Source of the DNA: Gemmatimonadota bacterium
GTDB lineage: Bacteria > Gemmatimonadota > Gemmatimonadetes > Gemmatimonadales > Gemmatimonadaceae
Length of the DNA: 64,000 bases
Assembly: GCA_031372565.1 (NCBI GenBank)
Contig: JANMLN010000124.1
Location: 1 to 64,000 of the forward strand
Direction: 5' to 3'
Part shown: piece by piece, positions 49,527 through 58,155 of the stretch
Numbering within the stretch: position 1 is the stretch's first letter
Layout: each line of letters starts with the position of its first letter
Translations under genes and position numbers: made by a program
The notes under the pieces: generated by a model
Database searches by the model: none
Told to the model about the DNA's origin: nothing
What the model saw: the letters and a program-made list of their open reading frames with translations, nothing else

Positions 49527-49706
49527 GGTCGCGTGTGAGAGTGGAGGGGGAGCCAATACTCCAGCCACCCCGATCGCATTTCCTATCGGGACCACCCGCG
49601 CGAGCGCCCCGCCCGGAGTGTCCGGAACCGCGCACACATCCGCTCTGGCCTTTACTCGGGCACAGAGACAGAATTGCGGATTCGACGCTCCCTCACTCCC
49701 GCTCAC

Positions 49707-52469
49707 GTGTTCACCACCGAGCAGCTCAACACCGCCCTCGCCGGTCGATACGTCATTGAACGACGCATCGGCGAGGGCGGCATGGCCATCGTCTACCTCG
49801 CGCGCGACCTGAAGCACGATCGCCGGGTCGCACTCAAGGTGCTGCGTCCTGACTTGGGCGCGATCGTCGGCGAGGAACGGTTCCTGGCCGAGATCCGTGT
49901 GACGGCCAATCTGCAGCATCCCAACCTGCTGCCGTTGTTCGATTCGGGCGCCGCGGATGGTCTGCTCTTCTACGTCATGCCGTACGTGGAAGGCGAGTCG
50001 CTGCGCGCGCGTATCGACCGCGAGAAGCAGCTGCCGGTGGACGAGGCCGTACGCATCACGGTCGCGATCGCGGGCGCGCTCGAGACGGCGCACCAGCAGG
50101 GGATCATCCATCGGGATCTCAAGCCCGAGAACATCCTCCTGCAGGCCGGACAGCCGGTGATCGCCGACTTCGGGATCGCGCTCGCGGTGAGCAACGCCGG
50201 CGGCGCGCGCATCACGCAGACGGGCCTCTCGCTCGGCACGCCGATGTACATGAGTCCCGAGCAGGCCACGGGTGATCGCTCGATCGACGGGCGTACCGAT
50301 CTGTACTCGCTCGCGGCGATGACGTACGAGATGCTCACCGGCGAGGCGCCGCACACCGGCACGACGTCGCAGGCGATCATCGCGAAGCTGATGACCGAGA
50401 ATCCGCGGCCGCTCACGACGCTCAGACGCAACGTGCCGCCGCACGTGAATGCGGCCGTGCTGCACGCGCTCGAGAAGGTGCCGGCCGACCGGTTCTCCAC
50501 GCCGCGCGAGTTTGCGGCGGCGCTCACGACGCCTGGGGCGGTACTGGCCACCGGGACGGTGGGCGACGCGGTGCCGGTCGCCCAAAGGCGCGGCGCGAGC
50601 GCGGGCCGCCTGATCGTGGCGGGGCTGGCGGGCGCGGTGATCACCGGGGCGGCGGCCGCGGGGTGGATGGCGTACACGCGAGTGAGTCCGCCAGTGACGC
50701 GGGTCTTTCTCGATGTGCCGGAGAATGCGCGCGTGGCTGAGCGCTCGCGGTTCGCCCTGTCGGCTGATGGCTCCACCCTCGCGTACAACAGCGATGCCGA
50801 CTCGACGGCGCCATACGCCCTGTGGGTGAAGGGGCGCTCGCAGCCCACGCCTCGGCAGTTGATTCCTCGTCCCGTGAACAACTACGCGCTCTCCGCAGAC
50901 GGCAGTTGGTTGGCGTACATCGAAGGGGGGCGGCTGTTCAAGATCTCGACCACCGGCGGCACGGGGATCCCGTTGGCCGACTCGGTCGGTGCCGTGCTGG
51001 GATGGACTGAGGCGGGCGAGATAGTCGTCGGCCGATTTGATGCGTCGCGCCGGCGGGGCGTGGTCTATCGCATCGCGGCGGACGGTGGTGCGTCGAGCCA
51101 GCTGGTGGCCCTTCCGGACTCTCTCTTTCCGACCAACCCCGTGATACTGCCAGGGCAGAAGGGAGTGCTGTTCGCTGGCTGCCCCGCGCGCGCCTGTACG
51201 GCTGGCGGAGGCGACTTCTCGCTCTGGGTCATTTCCACCGCCACGGGGGAAGCGCGTACCCTGCTGCCCGGTGGTATCGCGGGGTGGTACCTCCCGACAG
51301 GCGATGTGCTCGCCATTCGGCGCGACGGGACGCTGTTGAGGCTTCCCTTCGATCTGGGCTCCCTGACCGTCCGCGGGAATCCGGTCCCGGTGCTTGATAG
51401 TGTCGGGGTCTTCGTCTCGCGTGGCGGCGCACCAGTCGCGCAGTTTGCCGTCTCGTCACAGGGCACGATGGTCGCCACCCTCGGTTCGGTGAGCGCCACC
51501 CGCACTGGCGGGGGACGGTACCGCATGCTGTGGGTGGATCGCACCGGCAAGGTGACGCCCATGGACTCCTCCTGGACCGTCTCCCTCACGGTCGCCACCG
51601 GCAACATCGGCTGGGCCATCTCACCCGATGGGCGACGGCTGGTGATCGGGGAGAACCGGCAAGGGCAAGACAACATCTGGATCAAGGAGCTCAAGCCGAA
51701 TGGCAACGAGATGCGGCTCACAACCGACACGGCGTCGGAGTATCGCCCGCGCTGGAGCGCTGACGGCCGCACGGTGACGTACCAGCGGTCCACCGGATTG
51801 CAGGCGCTGTACCGACGGGCCGCCGACGGCACGGGAGAGGAGACCCTGATACTCCCTCCCAAGCGACTCGGCGTGGCGGAGCACGCATTCTCGCCCGACG
51901 GCAAGTGGCTGGTGCATCGCAAGGGCGGCAACAACGACATCGTGGGCGGACGCGACATCTGGGCGCGCCGCACCGATGGCGACACCGTCGGGAAGCCGAT
52001 CGTCGCCGATCCCAAGTTCGACGAGGCGGCGTTCTCGATCTCCCCTGACGGGCGGTGGATCGCCTTCGAGTCGAACGAGACCGGTGCACGCGAGGTGTAC
52101 GTGCGTCCGTTCCCCGAGACCGACAGCGGCAAGTGGAAGGTCTCGAATGGCGGTGCACACGCCGCCCTGTGGGCGCGCAACGGGCGCGAACTCTACTTCG
52201 TCACCAGCGCACGCGACCTGATGGCGGTGCCGCTGCGCCCCACCGCCACCTCGCCCGGGCTCGGCACACCGGTCAAGCTCTTCCGCGTGCAGGACAACTG
52301 GGCGCTGCGCGACGACGAGAACTACACGCCGTTCGACGTGGCCCCGGACGGCCGCTTCCTCATGGCCGAGCAGGTGGGGAATCGCGAGCAGGTGGCGCCC
52401 AAGCGGCGCCCAGTGCTGTACGTCGAGAACTGGTTCGCGGAGCTCATGCGGTCAGGGAAGGAGCGATAG
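49707..52469 (+). CDS. Hanks-type Ser/Thr kinase with TM and PD40/TolB-like beta-propeller repeats
   Basis: GEGGMAIVY, VALK, HRDLKPEN, DFG, MSPEQ; repeated (W/F/I)SPDG. Confidence 0.93.
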   Translation: MFTTEQLNTALAGRYVIERRIGEGGMAIVYLARDLKHDRRVALKVLRPDLGAIVGEERFLAEIRVTANLQHPNLLPLFDSGAADGLLFYVMPYVEGESLRARIDREKQLPVDEAVRITVAIAGALETAHQQGIIHRDLKPENILLQAGQPVIADFGIALAVSNAGGARITQTGLSLGTPMYMSPEQATGDRSIDGRTDLYSLAAMTYEMLTGEAPHTGTTSQAIIAKLMTENPRPLTTLRRNVPPHVNAAVLHALEKVPADRFSTPREFAAALTTPGAVLATGTVGDAVPVAQRRGASAGRLIVAGLAGAVITGAAAAGWMAYTRVSPPVTRVFLDVPENARVAERSRFALSADGSTLAYNSDADSTAPYALWVKGRSQPTPRQLIPRPVNNYALSADGSWLAYIEGGRLFKISTTGGTGIPLADSVGAVLGWTEAGEIVVGRFDASRRRGVVYRIAADGGASSQLVALPDSLFPTNPVILPGQKGVLFAGCPARACTAGGGDFSLWVISTATGEARTLLPGGIAGWYLPTGDVLAIRRDGTLLRLPFDLGSLTVRGNPVPVLDSVGVFVSRGGAPVAQFAVSSQGTMVATLGSVSATRTGGGRYRMLWVDRTGKVTPMDSSWTVSLTVATGNIGWAISPDGRRLVIGENRQGQDNIWIKELKPNGNEMRLTTDTASEYRPRWSADGRTVTYQRSTGLQALYRRAADGTGEETLILPPKRLGVAEHAFSPDGKWLVHRKGGNNDIVGGRDIWARRTDGDTVGKPIVADPKFDEAAFSISPDGRWIAFESNETGAREVYVRPFPETDSGKWKVSNGGAHAALWARNGRELYFVTSARDLMAVPLRPTATSPGLGTPVKLFRVQDNWALRDDENYTPFDVAPDGRFLMAEQVGNREQVAPKRRPVLYVENWFAELMRSGKER

Positions 52470-52668: not shown

Positions 52669-52889
52669 CTGCGGAGTTGCACGAGTCCGCGTGAGGAAGG
52701 CAAGCGCGTAACGTGCGCAGTCAGGCGCGTGCGAACAGCGACCGTTCGTCGCCGCCCTCCGGGCGCACGGCCTACTCATCCTTTCAGGCGATGGTAGTCC
52801 GAAGGAGGGATGTGCAGCATGTGATGTGGGCGCCGAGGCCACGGCCGAGGGACTTTGGGCAACGCGCCAGACATCGAGGATCCATTCAC

Positions 52890-53723
52890 ATGTCTCGCAT
52901 GCGCACTTTCGGCGCCGTCGCACGGGCCGCCGTCGCGACGCTGGTGCTCTCGACCGTCGCAGCCGCCCAAGGGCCGCTCCGGAGCGCCAACCCGTTTGCC
53001 GTGCTCGGTGGCTCAACCGTGACCAATACGGGCCCCACCACGATCACCGGCAATCTCGGCCTGTATCCGGGAACGGCCATCACAGGTCTCGGCAGCATCA
53101 CGCTGAACGGCACCGTGCACGCCACCGATGGCGTGGCCGCGCTCGCGCAGCAGGACGCGCGTACCGCGTACAACTACTTCCGCAGCCTGCCGCTCACGAC
53201 CGACCTCTCGGGTATCGATCTGGGTGGTCGTACGTTGACGCCGGGGGTCTACGCGTTCTCGTCCTCGGCGCAACTGACCGGCAACCTGGTGCTCGACTTC
53301 CTCGGCAACCCGAATGGACAGTTCATCTTCCAGATCGGCAGCGCGTTCACGTCCGCGAGCGGATCGTCGGTGTCGGTGCTCAACGGCGGCGCGGGCAGCG
53401 GCGTGTACTGGCAGGTTGGCAGTTCGGCCACGCTCGGCAGCACGACGAGCTTCATGGGCAACCTGATTGCCGACCAGAGCATCACGATGACGACCGGGGC
53501 CAAGATCGGCTGCGGGCGCGCGTTCGCGCTCGTTGGTGCCGTCACACTCGACAACAACGTGATTGCCGCGAGTTGCCGTGCTGGCGGCGGCCCCGATGAC
53601 TTCGGCAGCGGTGGCTTCAGTGGCGGGACCCAGCCGGCCGTGGTGCCGGAGCCCGCGACGTTCGTGTTGCTCGGAAGCGGGCTTCTCGGCATGCTGGCGT
53701 TCGGGTGTCGTCGCTCTCGCTGA
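52890..53723 (+). CDS. DUF3494 ice-binding-like protein with PEP-CTERM sorting tail
   Basis: Signal peptide; [65 protein letters not shown]. Confidence 0.9.
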
Positions 53724-53728
53724 CGCGC

Positions 53729-54865
53729 ATGACGGATCCCGCATCTCGCCGCCACGTGCTCGCCGCGATCGGGCTCGTGGCCGCGGGGCTCGCGATGCGT
53801 CGGACCCGCACGTGGGGAACGGTGCAGGCATCCGCACCGCTGCGTGGAGGGGCCCCCGCGCTCCTGAGGCTCGTGTCGGCCCCACTCGCGGCACCGTCAT
53901 CGCTCCTTGCGATCGTCACCGCCGCCACGCGCGCGGCCTCCAGCCACAATACCCAACCGTGGACGGTGAGCCTTTCGGACAGCATGGTGTCGGTGAAGCC
54001 CGACTTCACCCGCCGATGTCCGCAGGTCGACCCGGATGATCACCATCTGTACGCGAGCCTTGGATGCCTGGCGGAGAACATCCACATTGCCGCGCGGGCG
54101 GCCGGGTGGCCCGGCGACGTCGGCGTGACGCTGCCGCATGTCGCGGACGGGCGTGCACGACTCGTGCTGGCCGACGGCCCACGCGATCTGGCGCCATTCG
54201 CGGCGGCCATGGCGGCGCGTCAGTGTACGCGCAGCGGGTTCGATGGACGGTCCGTGCCGGTGCCGCATCTCAAGCTGCTGTCCGCGGCCGGCACCGGCGA
54301 TGGCGTCAGCATGCTGCTGTTCACGGACCCGGAGCATCGAAGCGGGACCGCCGAGTGGGTGGCACAGGGCAACACCGCGCAGATCGACGACGCCGCGTGG
54401 CGCGAGGAACTCGTGCGGTGGCTCCGATTCAGCGAGGGCGAGGCGCGAGAACACGGGGACGGACTCTGGTCTGCGGCGACCGGCAATCCGGGACTCTGGC
54501 GCGCCATCGGCAAGGTCGCCCTGACGCTCACCTACTCCTCGCGATCGCAGAACAAGAAGGAGGTGCCGTGGATCACGGGCTCGTCCGGCATCGCCGTGTT
54601 CGTCTCGGAGCGCAACGACGCGCCGCACTGGATCGAGGCGGGGCGCTGCTACCAGCGATTCGCCCTGCAGGCGACGCTGCTCGGCATCAGGCACGCCTTC
54701 ATCAACCAGGCGGTGGAAGTGGCGGCGTTGCGACCGCAGTTCGCGACCTGGTTGGGAATCGGAGATCGCCGTCCGGATCTCGTGGTGCGGTTCGGGTACG
54801 CGGAGGCGATGCCCATGTCGTTCCGGCGGCCGATGGCCGCCGTGCTGGCGCGCGACGACGGGTGA
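53729..54865 (+). CDS. Acg-type FMN nitroreductase-like protein with a Tat-like leader
   Basis: SRRHVL leader, AASSHNTQPW, DPD..L..SLGC..EN, RQCTR, W..AG...R..L.AT, R.GY, RRP. Confidence 0.8.
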   Translation: MTDPASRRHVLAAIGLVAAGLAMRRTRTWGTVQASAPLRGGAPALLRLVSAPLAAPSSLLAIVTAATRAASSHNTQPWTVSLSDSMVSVKPDFTRRCPQVDPDDHHLYASLGCLAENIHIAARAAGWPGDVGVTLPHVADGRARLVLADGPRDLAPFAAAMAARQCTRSGFDGRSVPVPHLKLLSAAGTGDGVSMLLFTDPEHRSGTAEWVAQGNTAQIDDAAWREELVRWLRFSEGEAREHGDGLWSAATGNPGLWRAIGKVALTLTYSSRSQNKKEVPWITGSSGIAVFVSERNDAPHWIEAGRCYQRFALQATLLGIRHAFINQAVEVAALRPQFATWLGIGDRRPDLVVRFGYAEAMPMSFRRPMAAVLARDDG

Positions 54866-55009
54866 GCGGCGTCGGACTCGTCCGGTGGGCGATCGCGTCG
54901 CATACGCAACCGACGCGGATCGAAATTCCTTCTGTGAAGCGCCGGCCCGCGACAAGCCCCCACATGCTGTTGCGAGGCTTGGCGTGGCAGCTTCTTCAAT
55001 TGTCCGAGC

Positions 55010-55185
55010 GATCCTCGAGGTGCTGCTCAGCCTTGTGTTCGCGCGCTCGGATGGGACGCGATGGTCCCGGCGCATGCGGGTGGTCCGAAGAAGCGGGGTG
55101 GCGCCAACTCTCCCACGACGTCGATGGTCCGTGGTGCGTCAAGGAATCTCACGCGCGCTGTCGCTCCCGATTCAGTCATCTCGAT
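55010..55185 (-). ncRNA. Candidate bridge/seek RNA (boundaries approximate)
   Basis: Two stem-flanked internal loops carrying GAGATTCCT/GGGAGAG and ACCACCC/ACACAAG, resembling the target and donor junctions. Confidence 0.6.
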
Positions 55186-55204
55186 TCGCGCCCGGTGCGC
55201 GGCG

Positions 55205-56233
55205 CTACGCCGCGCGGGGTGGGGCCTCCGTCGGACGCGGGCGGAGCTGCTGCGCGTCGAACGACGCACCGTCCCGCCAGATCGCGTAGAGGATGCCCGC
55301 CAGTCGGCGCGCGAGGGCGACCGCGTCGCTGCGCGATCTGCACGGTCCACGCACGCAGCGCCGCGGTCTCGGTGGACGTCGAGCGCAGGATCGTCCACGC
55401 CGCTTCCACCAGCAGCCAGCGCATGCGCCCGTTGCCCGCTTTCGTGAGGTGCCCCAGCTGCCGCTTCGCGCGCGATCTGCGCTCGCTCGGAATCAGGCCG
55501 AGGTACGCCTCGAGTTCGTGGGCCGAGCGAAACCGCGTGATGTCATCCACCGTGGCCACGAACGCGCTGGCCGTCAGGGGCCCCACGCCCGGCGCGGTCG
55601 TGAGGCGCAGCGCGATGGGCTCCTCCTGCACGAAGGCCGCGATGCGCGCATCGGCCACGCCGATCTGCGCGTTGAGCGGGGTGAACACCGCGAACAGTGG
55701 CGACAGTTCGGTGGTCAACGTGGGTGAGAGCTCCAACTCGGCAATCCGCGTCGGCGCCCAGGCACTCGCACTCGTTGGCACCCGCAACCCGTCGCGTCGT
55801 ACGAGCGCCTTCGCGAGCGCGACATACCGCGTGCGCGTGCGCACGAGCGCATCGCGCACTGCGGGTTCGGCCCGCACATGCCGTCGCGCCTCGGAGAGCC
55901 GATAGGCCGGACGCCAGGCGCCCGTTTCGCACGCGTCCATCAGTGTGCGCGCATCGCGCTTATCGGTCTTGGTGCGGCGCGAGCGATTGGCGTACATCGG
56001 CGCATAGTTCGGGTCTGCCACGATCACCTCGTGGCCGAGCGAATCGAGGTGGCGCGCCACCCACTCGCTCTCCCTGCTCGCTTCGAGCAGGATGCGAGCC
56101 GGCGCCCGCCCGCGCAGCACCGCGGTGAACCGCTCCCGGCTGGTGGCGATCCGGCGATCGGTGACGGTCCCGTCGGCTGCCTTCATCGACAGCTGACTCT
56201 TGCGCTTGTGCAGATCCAGGCCTATGACTTCAC
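55205..56233 (-). pseudogene. IS110-family DEDD recombinase/transposase, frameshifted near both ends
   Basis: IGLDLHK, LEAS, KTDKRDA, PGVG, YLGLIP, TKAGN..MR..L.EAA; GTG 56233 (after GGAGG) is out of frame with EVIGLD; VALARRLAGILYAIWRDG continues in another frame from about 55320. Confidence 0.88.
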
Positions 56234-56448
56234 GGTGGCTGGCCTCCCGGTATGCGCCCCGGCGGCAGACGGTGCGCGGGTGGATCGTGGTGGGGCAGAG
56301 GGTAGCTCCGCGTTACCGTGGAGGTCCAGCCGCCGCTTCATACCAACTATCCCGACTTCGACCCGAGCTCCGAGGTATCCTGTGCGCCGTTCGCAGACTC
56401 CCCCCCCCCGCGCTGAATACACACAGGCGAGCATTCGCTGCGCGCAGC

Positions 56449-58155
56449 TTGCGAGCGCGCATCATTTGGTGGTTTCGCCGAGGCGTGGTATGCGGTAGCG
56501 TCGCCCTAGCCGTGGCGTGTGAGCGACCGACCGAGGGCCTACAGACCAACGCAACGCCACCTCGCGAGGTGCGTTCCGCCGCACTGGCGACACGACCACC
56601 TCTTGCGGACACGATTGAGGAAGTACGAGTCGCTCTCGCCGCAGGTCTCCTGCCCGAGCTGCCATCGGACGCGGCGCTCATGCGCGCGGTGGAGGAGTCG
56701 AAGGGTATTGTTTTGATCGGGCTGAAGGAGCCCTTGCAGCCGAGTACGCGCGCTTCCGGACGGTTTCAGGCCATGGCACGCGCGCGTGTCGAAGACCTTC
56801 AGCGCCTGCTCGCGGATGAGGGCGTCGCGGTGCTGCAGTCGATGCGATACACATCCACCGTTGTCGCGCGTATCGACGCGATTCAGGCACCTCGTCTGCG
56901 ACGCCTGCCCATCGTCAATTTCCTTGAGGTGCCGGCCAGCGGCGCTCCGGGACAGGCTGCGCAGATCGTCGACACCGCGCAGCGCATCTACGGGTTGCCA
57001 GGCGTATGGACCATGGGCGGCGGCGCGGGAGGCAGCGCCACGATCACAATCCTGGATTCCGGCTTGGACTCGTTGCACTACTATCTGCCGACGGGAGATG
57101 GACCGGCGAGTCTGAGCGTGTGCGGCTACGTGTCCTCGGCGCGGTCCTGCTACAACCCCGCCGACGTCCATGGCAGCGCCGTGGCGGGCGTCGTGGCGGG
57201 CCGAGACAACTGCTGCGGGATTGTGGGCGTGGCATACGGACCGTTGACGGTGAACTTTGCGCGAATCACCGACAGCGTGCAGTACTGGGGCGAAGCGGCG
57301 TTCATTGCGGCTCTTGACTGGGCGACATCGCTCCAAGTGCCCCGTCACATCGTCAACATGAGCTTCCAGTTCTGCACGATGGGCTCCGCTTCGTGGAACG
57401 CGATAGGTCGGGCCAGTCAGGCGGGCATTCTGCTCGTCTCGATCGCGGGGAACACGAACTGGCTCTGTTCCGGGTTTCCGCCCGGGGCGAACGGTGTGAC
57501 GTTCCCGGGACGCTATCCCGAGGTGCTTGCCGTTGCTGGCACGAGTGTGGCAGACGGCTTTGCGCTTCCGGAGGGGTCGTGCTCGGGGTCGCGACAGGGT
57601 CCCGAGGTCGCGCTCTCCGCGCCGTTCAAGGTGCAGACGATGGGCTTCGCAGGCTCAAGGGCGGTGATGTGCGGTACTTCGTTCTCGGCGCCAGCGGTAT
57701 CCGGCGCGGCTGCGCTTGTCTGGACGCAGAATCCATCGTGGAACGCAACCGCGGTGCGAAGCCGACTGTTCAGTTCCGCACTGGACCTCGGGCCGACTGG
57801 GAGGGATCAGCAGTTTGGCTTTGGGCGCCTGTCGGCTGTCAACGCGCTTCAGTCTCCCCTGCAGGTGTCCCTATCGGGTCCCGGTCTCCTCGATGTACCT
57901 GGGACGTACACCTGGTCGGCGACCGCGTCGGGCTCGCAGGCTCCGTATTCGATCGTCTGGTCCTACCGGAGTTCAGCCACGGGCGCCTGGGTCGCTGTCG
58001 GCAGCGGCTCGACGCACTCGCGGAACGTCACCGCCTCTTCTCCAAGCTTTCAGCTGCTTGCTCAGGTCACGACCCCCGCTTGGCAGGGCAGCGCCTCGGC
58101 AACGACGGCCGTCACCGTATCCATGGGGGGCGGATGCAATCCGTACTGCGAGTAG
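56449..58155 (+). CDS. S8 subtilisin-like serine peptidase, probable lipoprotein, with C-terminal Ig/PKD-like domain (start uncertain)
   Basis: ILDSG, HGSAVAG, AGN, GTSFSAP; LAVAC lipobox-like. Confidence 0.85.
   Translation: MRARIIWWFRRGVVCGSVALAVACERPTEGLQTNATPPREVRSAALATRPPLADTIEEVRVALAAGLLPELPSDAALMRAVEESKGIVLIGLKEPLQPSTRASGRFQAMARARVEDLQRLLADEGVAVLQSMRYTSTVVARIDAIQAPRLRRLPIVNFLEVPASGAPGQAAQIVDTAQRIYGLPGVWTMGGGAGGSATITILDSGLDSLHYYLPTGDGPASLSVCGYVSSARSCYNPADVHGSAVAGVVAGRDNCCGIVGVAYGPLTVNFARITDSVQYWGEAAFIAALDWATSLQVPRHIVNMSFQFCTMGSASWNAIGRASQAGILLVSIAGNTNWLCSGFPPGANGVTFPGRYPEVLAVAGTSVADGFALPEGSCSGSRQGPEVALSAPFKVQTMGFAGSRAVMCGTSFSAPAVSGAAALVWTQNPSWNATAVRSRLFSSALDLGPTGRDQQFGFGRLSAVNALQSPLQVSLSGPGLLDVPGTYTWSATASGSQAPYSIVWSYRSSATGAWVAVGSGSTHSRNVTASSPSFQLLAQVTTPAWQGSASATTAVTVSMGGGCNPYCE

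Follow-up and report, generated by a model that had tools for sequence, protein, structure and literature searches.

A decayed IS1111-type insertion sequence of a Gemmatimonadota bacterium with a probable bispecific bridge RNA in its right end

Does the non-coding region 3' of the transposase gene in an insertion sequence from a soil-dwelling Gemmatimonadota bacterium encode an RNA that specifies both the target and the ends of the element? A sequence-only reading of the window (the whole stretch of 64,000 nt that was analysed, with a G+C content of 68%) had proposed this on the basis of four short segments of the minus strand. The segments are found where they had been placed (GAGATTCCT at 55150-55142, GGGAGAG at 55114-55108, ACCACCC at 55084-55078 and ACACAAG at 55038-55032), the junction sequences to which they had been compared are real, and the match counts given for them (8/9, 6/7, 5/7 and 6/7) are correct. 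We then compared these matches with those obtained after shuffling 264 nt of the 3' non-coding region, the last 12 nt being left out. The 8/9 match recurred in 0.8% of 5000 shuffles, the two 6/7 matches in 31% and 30% of them, and the 5/7 match in 96%; all four matches in the given order were found in none of 20,000 shuffles. Only the 8/9 match thus exceeds chance when each is taken by itself, and the case for a guide RNA rests on the relatives of the element and not on the window.

The window contains a single IS110-family element, on the minus strand from about 56350 to 54929, which is the sole copy (Table 1). DNA similarity to 80 related loci sets in at 56349-56354 and ends at 54930-54913. 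In the aligned junctions, the left one reads ..GGGAT-AG-TTGGTATG, with the core dinucleotide AG at 56348-56347, and the right one ..CACAGA-AG-GAATTTCGATC, with AG at 54930-54929; the same dinucleotide is thus present at both junctions, a frame that also holds in the relatives. The element body runs from 56346 to 54929 (1418 nt), that is from TTGGTATG... through ...CACAGA plus the core, and its ends are nearly invariant among the loci (left, (T/C)AG-TTGGTATGAAGCGGC; right, GCCGCTTCACAGA-AG). Subterminal inverted repeats of 13 nt lie 7-8 nt inside the ends, and the non-coding ends measure 113 nt on the 5' side of the transposase gene vs about 275 nt (274-276) on its 3' side. The element belongs to the IS1111 group of the IS110 family, as recognized by its DEDD_Tnp_IS110 and Transposase_20 domains, its subterminal inverted repeats and its long 3' non-coding end. 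Members of this group are described as having subterminal inverted repeats of 7-17 bp (PMC11208160) and a transposase of 330-350 aa with a G(L)-P----S(T)G motif (PMC11187229).

Table 1. Coordinates of the element, of its predicted RNA and guides, and of uninterrupted target copies in related loci
Feature	Position	Strand	Basis or remark
IS110-family, IS1111-type insertion sequence	54929..56348	minus	AG core counted at both junctions
Left half of target, GGGAT	56349..56353	minus	aligned junctions
Left subterminal inverted repeat, ATGAAGCGGCGGC	56329..56341	minus	complementary to 54946-54934 at 11/13 positions
Transposase pseudogene (DEDD_Tnp_IS110 + Transposase_20)	55205..56233	minus	Pfam, three-frame translation, alignment of relatives
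Candidate bridge/seek RNA gene	54990..55192	minus	extent of the covariance-model match; structured core 55178 to 55021
Helix P0, 5' strand, UGACUG	55173..55178	minus	pairs with 55025-55021; encloses both guide loops
Helix P1, 5' strand	55153..55168	minus	basal stem of the target-binding loop
Target guide 1, UGAGAUUCCUU	55141..55151	minus	reverse complement of one element base, core AG and right flank
Helix P2, distal hairpin of the target-binding loop, TGACG/CGTCG	55116..55141	minus	helix 4
Target guide 2, GGGAGAG	55105..55114	minus	left-flank sense and core AG; close-relative consensus GGGATAG
Helix P1, 3' strand	55089..55104	minus	includes most of GCTTCTTCGG
Donor guide 1, GACCACCC (UACCACCC in close relatives)	55078..55085	minus	junction linker between P1 and P3
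Helices P3 (GCGCC / GCGCGC) and P4 (hairpin GGGAC / GUCCC)	55041..55073	minus	between the two donor guides
Donor guide 2, ACACAAG (ACAGAAG in 52 relatives)	55032..55038	minus	sense of right end and core
Helix P0, 3' strand, CAGCA	55021..55025	minus	RNAalifold and A2/A3 counts
Right subterminal inverted repeat, GCCGGCGCTTCAC	54934..54946	minus	partner of 56341-56329
Right half of target, GAATTTCGATC	54918..54928	minus	aligned junctions
Uninterrupted repeat copies in related loci	L016:2155; L021:2061, 2893; L031:437/1165/2172; L033:543/1046/1478; L047:2838/5822/6304		at most 3 kb from insertions

The assignment of AG as the core relies on uninterrupted copies of the dispersed repeat that many relatives use as target. 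This intergenic repeat has the form CTAACGCC..AG(C/T)T(C/A/T)AGCTGC(G/A)(G/A)GCG, and its uninterrupted copies read ..AGCT[C/A]AGCTGC... A boundary model weighed at the outset, with a core GA, GC or CT just outside TAGTTGG...CACAGAAG, was dropped because of these uninterrupted copies, because loci L010, L011 and L025 are compatible with the AG/AA frame only, and because AG is present within the guides themselves. L010 and L011 are inserted beside a sequence ending in GGTTCAAATCC, which resembles a tRNA T-arm; a tRNA as their target was discarded, as ARAGORN finds no tRNA gene in either locus.

The surroundings of the window copy were searched for its own target. The idea that this copy is aimed at a repeat motif found no support, since no uninterrupted copy of the target was found in the window or in the 80 loci: the empty target GGGATAGGAATTTC, allowing up to 3 mismatches, gave 0 matches in the window vs 1.15 expected, and no empty site of this target class was found in the 80 loci. 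About 50 nt of the right flank (54928-54866, minus strand; GAAWTTCRATY..GGTC..GAGTAT..GATCGCCGACC), which include a palindrome, are common to the window and to L029, L049, L054 and L067; no further copy was found in the window, in which a motif derived from the shared flank gave 11 matches vs 8.2 expected. Orthologous flanking genes as the cause of the shared flank were rejected, as tblastn with both neighbouring proteins of the window against the loci returned nothing. A shared flank amid unrelated genes suggests that the target may be a REP-like element. On the other side, the element is separated from the start of the neighbouring subtilisin-like ORF by a left flank with a run of ten or eleven G (minus strand, 56410-56400). 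Elsewhere in the window, the ORF at 52713-53723 (plus strand) adjoins a long Ser/Thr-kinase-like ORF (49674-52469), and has a C-terminal end that resembles a PEP-CTERM sorting signal.

The transposase gene of the window copy is broken. Pfam recognizes PF02371 (Transposase_20, E=1.4e-21) and PF01548 (DEDD_Tnp_IS110, E=2.9e-10) in a pseudogene that starts with GTG at 56233-56231 and stops with TAG at 55207-55205. DNA alignment with 12 relatives revealed a 1-nt deletion near 56228/56227, which brings a stop after three codons (GTG-AAG-TCA-TAG vs ATG-GAG-ATC-ATA-GGC in the relatives). A second frame change, with the loss of about six residues, lies near 55322: when an intact 348-aa relative is compared by BLASTP, its residues 2-304 find their counterpart in one frame and its residues 311-348 in a different one. 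Moreover, the near-invariant C-terminal S-G motif reads S-R in the window, the S being retained and the G replaced by R; intact relatives are 348 aa long and carry the motif G-x-x-P-S-E-R-S-S-G. The closest of these is a metagenomic protein of 348 aa with 89% identity, and the named relatives come from Gemmatimonadota. A profile search of genome contigs with an alignment of 35 proteins gave 308 relatives, 80 of which make up the loci analysed here; these are mostly from Gemmatimonadaceae MAGs, with some from Rokubacteria/Methylomirabilota and Myxococcota MAGs and one from a 'delta proteobacterium' MAG. Upstream of the GGGAGG ribosome-binding site, the 5' non-coding region displays two conserved hairpins (CTCCACGG..CGTGGAG and CCGTC..GACGG, at 56325-56290 and 56275-56255, minus strand), for which compensatory differences are visible among the aligned relatives.

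The window copy is a relic, as judged from the two frameshifts and the changed S-G motif of its transposase, from one mismatch to the copy's own junction or end in each of three of its four guides and from the absence of a second copy in the window. Decay had also been put forward to account for the guide mismatches, which is only partly upheld. The T-to-G change in GGGAGAG (a guide also found in L013) and the G-to-C change in ACACAAG are absent from most relatives, that is, private or nearly so, and the gene beside them is broken. By contrast, the A-to-G change in the right-flank guide need not be decay, since the resulting GAATCTCA is the flank actually present at L004 and L037.

Over the stretch between about 55192 and about 54990, a good alignment was obtained for the 3' non-coding regions of 56 copies. 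A consensus structure was drawn from RNAalifold and inspection, and a covariance model was built on the 46-sequence alignment, termed A2. In the window, cmsearch returned one match only (154.5 bits, E=7e-41), and the model also matched 71 of the 80 related loci, always on the transposase strand and 42-217 nt downstream of the end of the protein match. Five of the nine loci devoid of a model match (L005, L033, L045, L072 and L073) end at most 162 nt from the gene; in the other four (L008, L014, L042 and L062), downstream sequence is present.

From 5' to 3', the modelled RNA starts with the first strand of an outer helix (P0), followed by a long stem (P1) that bears an internal loop and ends in a distal hairpin (P2). 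A linker leads from there to a stem-hairpin (P3/P4), and another one to the 3' strand of P0. In A2, 92.8% of the cells are paired and 17 of the 33 pairs are changed on both sides. None of 500 shuffles reached the observed values, and partners slid along the alignment pair at 31-50% (maximum 49.9%). In an alignment of 68 distinct rows (A3), 94.7% of the cells are paired and 22 of the 33 pairs show compensatory changes, these counts leaning towards the structure since the rows were fitted to the model. P0 is paired in 97.8% of the cells of A2, with four of its five pairs changed on both sides in A3; nine of the 14 pairs of P1 (helices 2 and 3) are changed on both sides in A2, the two middle pairs of this stem being absent in the window and in L054; P3 and P4 (helices 5 and 6) are each paired in 99.1% of the cells, and all five pairs of P4 are changed on both sides, in 2 to 29 rows of A3. 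The TGACG/CGTCG stem noticed by eye in the window is real and conserved and corresponds to P2, which is paired in 86.4% of the cells of A2, with two of its four pairs changed on both sides, GC giving way to AU on both sides in 15 rows of A2 (out of 46) and in 21 rows of A3 (out of 68). The stem GCTTCTTCGG/CTGAGCAGC, proposed to close the second loop, does not correspond to the conserved pairing, in which its strands form part of P1 and P0; it forms seven of nine pairs in the window, and in the 46 relatives 67.7% of its cells are paired, one pair being formed in none of the 46. A small CAG/CUG hairpin that RNAalifold places over the right-end guide is invariant and hence uninformative, and was excluded from the model.

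Compared with its relatives, the window RNA departs from columns that are at least 90% conserved at six of 70 positions, three of which it has in common with L054, apparently as a lineage variant of P1; the model score of the window is the lowest among close relatives. Folded alone, the window RNA is no more stable than shuffled sequences (z=+1.10; 168 of 200 shuffles were at least as stable). An Rfam scan of 54500-56800 yielded no family at threshold (five matches up to E=10, all far below the gathering scores), and neither a sigma-70-like promoter nor an intrinsic terminator was found in 54850-56450. A hexamer TTGAC(G/A) is conserved in nearly all relatives some 24 nt from the right end (TTGTCG in the window, 54954-54949, minus strand). 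In ISEc11, a promoter is reportedly formed at the circle junction, and by analogy the hexamer might provide the -35 box of a promoter that arises at the junction upon circularisation; no -10 box is evident at the normal spacing from TTGTCG.

We compared the internal loop of the modelled RNA with the flanks of each insertion. In the relatives, its 5' side, when reverse-complemented, spells one element base, the core and 7-9 nt of the right flank, and its 3' side gives about 5 nt of left flank in the sense orientation, followed by the core. In the window, the two guides match the window's own junctions at 9/11 and 6/7 positions, respectively. Both target guides covary with the flanks across the relatives. 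For the right-flank guide (n=59, 31 distinct), the mean exact run is 7.85 nt at the guide's own junction vs 3.3 nt at foreign ones, and for the left-flank guide (n=49, 30 distinct) 5.49 nt vs 2.94 nt; in either case, none of 5000 permutations with one representative per distinct guide reached the observed match, many relatives sharing one target class so that rows are not independent. An earlier test with 18 distinct guides per side, in which L004 was scored 0 (no core having been located in its guide), likewise gave no permutation out of 20,000 that reached the observed match. Of the two, the left-flank guide gives the weaker signal: its median exact run is 6 nt, core included, and the run does not exceed 5 nt in 20 of 49 copies. 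The changes in the flanks are mirrored by the guides: the specificities include GAATTTCA, GAAATTCA, GCTGCGA, CTGCAT, GGGTTCAA, ACTGCTT and ACTGTCA, as well as GAACGATT, TCGACATA, GAAGGACA, GGCGAAT, GCGGCA and CACTAC. Single-base variants are also tracked within the target class of the window itself (GAATTTC vs GAAATTC in L003 and L001).

The left-flank guide is followed by bases that in most copies match the element and not the target. In the window, UUG (55107-55105) matches the first bases of the left end, and among 47 copies the first, second and third bases after the guide match the left end in 40, 45 and 30 cases, vs 4, 10 and 6 cases for the target. These bases shift from TT to AT or AG together with the left end, but most of the agreement reflects conservation, with only two or three independent changes. 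The extension is reminiscent of the IS621 handshake guide. Next to the right-flank guide and the right-end guide, the pattern differs between clades and yielded no consistent handshake bases.

The donor guides are predicted to sit in the single-stranded linkers of the three-way junction formed by the modelled helices. The first contains a 5-nt block (ACCA/UACCA; UACCA in the relatives of the window) that is complementary to positions 2-6 of the left end. The second is concordant with the right end of the element in 58 of 61 copies, the discordant ones being the window (ACACAAG), L054 and L046. The core dinucleotide is present in three of the four guides. Indeed, the left-end guide has a constant mismatch beside the core and matches one of the two core bases only; it also varies among copies whose left ends are identical. 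It is the least secure of the four guides and more weakly supported than the right-end guide, which covaries with the element end.

It might then be argued that the RNA seeks the target only, through the guides of its first loop, the protein reading the ends via the subterminal inverted repeats and the donor guides being conserved for structural reasons. In most copies, the ends and the donor guides hardly vary, and conservation alone thus explains most of their agreement; the left-end guide is irregular, as just described, and PMC11187229 stresses that IS1111 elements may differ in the way their ends are recognized. What makes this explanation very unlikely, in our opinion, is the behaviour of the few copies whose ends differ. 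A right end CATAGA goes with AUAGA in the guide in all six copies that have it, the same C-to-T change having occurred in both; where the left end is ATGGGA, AGGAGA or AGGGGA, the left-end block is UCCCC, UCUCC or UCCCC, and it changes in step with the left end in eight of ten loci with a different left end (three clades; L052 and L075 do not fit); and copies with an AA core (L025, L047 and L048) carry AA in their right-end guide. These variations of the donor ends come from only three or four clades and thus correspond to few independent co-change events. Still less credible is the view that the right end is merely terminal DNA recognized by the protein together with a 3' untranslated region, its likeness to the flanks being due to chance or to common descent in similar sites: the three chance-level matches of the window, the unremarkable fold of its single sequence and the target class shared by many relatives speak for it, but no permutation reaches the observed match when each distinct guide is represented once, very different flanks are each mirrored by a guide, and the compensatory changes in 17 to 22 of the 33 pairs would be needless in a DNA site.

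The bispecific guide RNA proposed to lie 3' of the transposase, with guides for the element's own target and own ends, is therefore borne out by the covariation of the guides with flanks and ends and by the covarying structure in the relatives. The region very probably encodes the bridge RNA (or seekRNA) of an IS1111-type element of the IS110 family, located in its long right end and on the transposase strand. In the proposed fold, P0 encloses two modules, one made of P1, the internal loop and P2, the other of P3/P4. The internal loop of the first module carries the target guides, its 5' side being complementary to the core and the right flank and its 3' side corresponding to the left flank and the core, with a continuation of 2-3 nt matching the left end of the element itself; the junction linkers carry the donor guides, one for the left end and the other for the right end and the core. 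By analogy with IS621 and ISEc11, the complex of transposase and RNA would base-pair through each loop to both DNA strands, those of the circularised element junction and those of the target GGGAT-AG-GAATTTC, and strand exchange would then take place at the core. What the comparison shows directly are the element boundaries, the conserved RNA structure, the covariation of guides with flanks and ends and the decay of the gene; transcription of the RNA, its binding by the protein and recombination are inferred.

The core itself varies within the clade. Copies with an AA core carry AA in three guides (L025 and L047). About 15 relatives (including L012, L016, L020, L023, L024 and L027) are inserted one base to the left of their sister group in the same dispersed repeat, with AG at the left junction and AA at the right one; in these copies, the right-flank guide has AA, and the left-flank and right-end guides have AG. 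Conceivably, the clade relaxes two rules of IS621, by inserting with unequal target and donor cores and by using a handshake-like extension in an RNA inverted with respect to the transposase, a proposition that we regard as doubtful. If both points hold, the clade would offer a natural series of more than 30 reprogrammed guides, together with data on core tolerance.

How does this RNA compare with known systems? It had been called uncharacterised, which does not hold: it belongs to a published kind, first described in 2024, and is not a new one. For IS1111 elements, right-end bridge RNAs or seekRNAs were demonstrated by experiment in that year and also predicted across the family (PMC11187229, PMC11208160), the prediction covering 93% of the IS1111 elements in ISfinder (PMC11208160). 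A literature search on IS110 elements in Gemmatimonadota found nothing on the present clade, members of which may already be listed in the supplements of the 2024 papers. The value of the present case to the field is thus that of an added example and not of a principle. It shows that a bridge RNA can be found by eye from one decayed copy, and that, in a Gemmatimonadota-centred IS1111 clade, the target guides, the donor guides, the core and the structure can all be read from natural variation alone. The intact relatives, unlike the window copy, could serve as additional programmable recombinases from high-G+C hosts.

IS621 (Durrant et al. 2024, PMC11208160; Hiraizumi et al. 2024, PMC11208158) provides the first comparison. 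As in its bridge RNA, which is bispecific with a target loop and a donor region, the guides, of about 9-11 nt (5') and about 7 nt (3'), match opposite strands and overlap at a 2-nt core. IS621 guides come in the order LTG, RTG, LDG, RDG, with the core dinucleotide represented in all four (PMC11208160). The order left target, right target, left donor, right donor ascribed to the window holds in the same sense: read antisense to the transposase, on the plus strand of the window, the core is CT and the IS621 scheme is recovered, the 5' guide of each loop being the sense of the left half (and pairing with the bottom strand) and the 3' guide being complementary to the right half. Directly behind the 3' target guide, 2-3 bases agree in most copies with the donor and not with the target, which recalls the handshake bases of IS621; the latter lie beside the top-strand guides and match the non-cognate DNA (PMC11208158; PMC13626964). 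By contrast with IS621, the RNA of the present clade is in the right end instead of the left one and inverted relative to the transposase, its donor guides are in a three-way junction instead of an internal loop, the inverted repeats of the element are long, and no consistent handshake bases are seen beside the donor guide.

Closer counterparts are the seekRNAs of ISEc11, ISPa11, ISKpn4 and ISPst6 (Siddiquee et al. 2024, PMC11187229), which are likewise encoded in the non-coding region downstream of a DEDD transposase of 330-350 aa in elements with subterminal inverted repeats, and in which the two target strands are matched by two short segments whose overlap lies at the insertion point. In those IS1111 elements, as here in the orientation of the transposase, the top-strand match lies 5' of the bottom-strand match, that is, in reversed order (PMC11187229). 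The present clade, compared with them by description, differs in being centred on Gemmatimonadota with relatives in Rokubacteria/Methylomirabilota and Myxococcota MAGs, in its targets and in the broken state of the window copy; beyond what is described for these seekRNAs, matches to the donor ends and an enclosing helix are also defined in it. Finally, it resembles the bridge RNAs of ISPa11, ISAzs32 and ISCARN28, whose structures are predictions for ISfinder entries (Durrant et al. 2024, PMC11208160): the RNA lies in the right end, the donor-binding bases are placed in a multiloop, as is often the case in IS1111 elements, and the pairing patterns span 8-14 nt.
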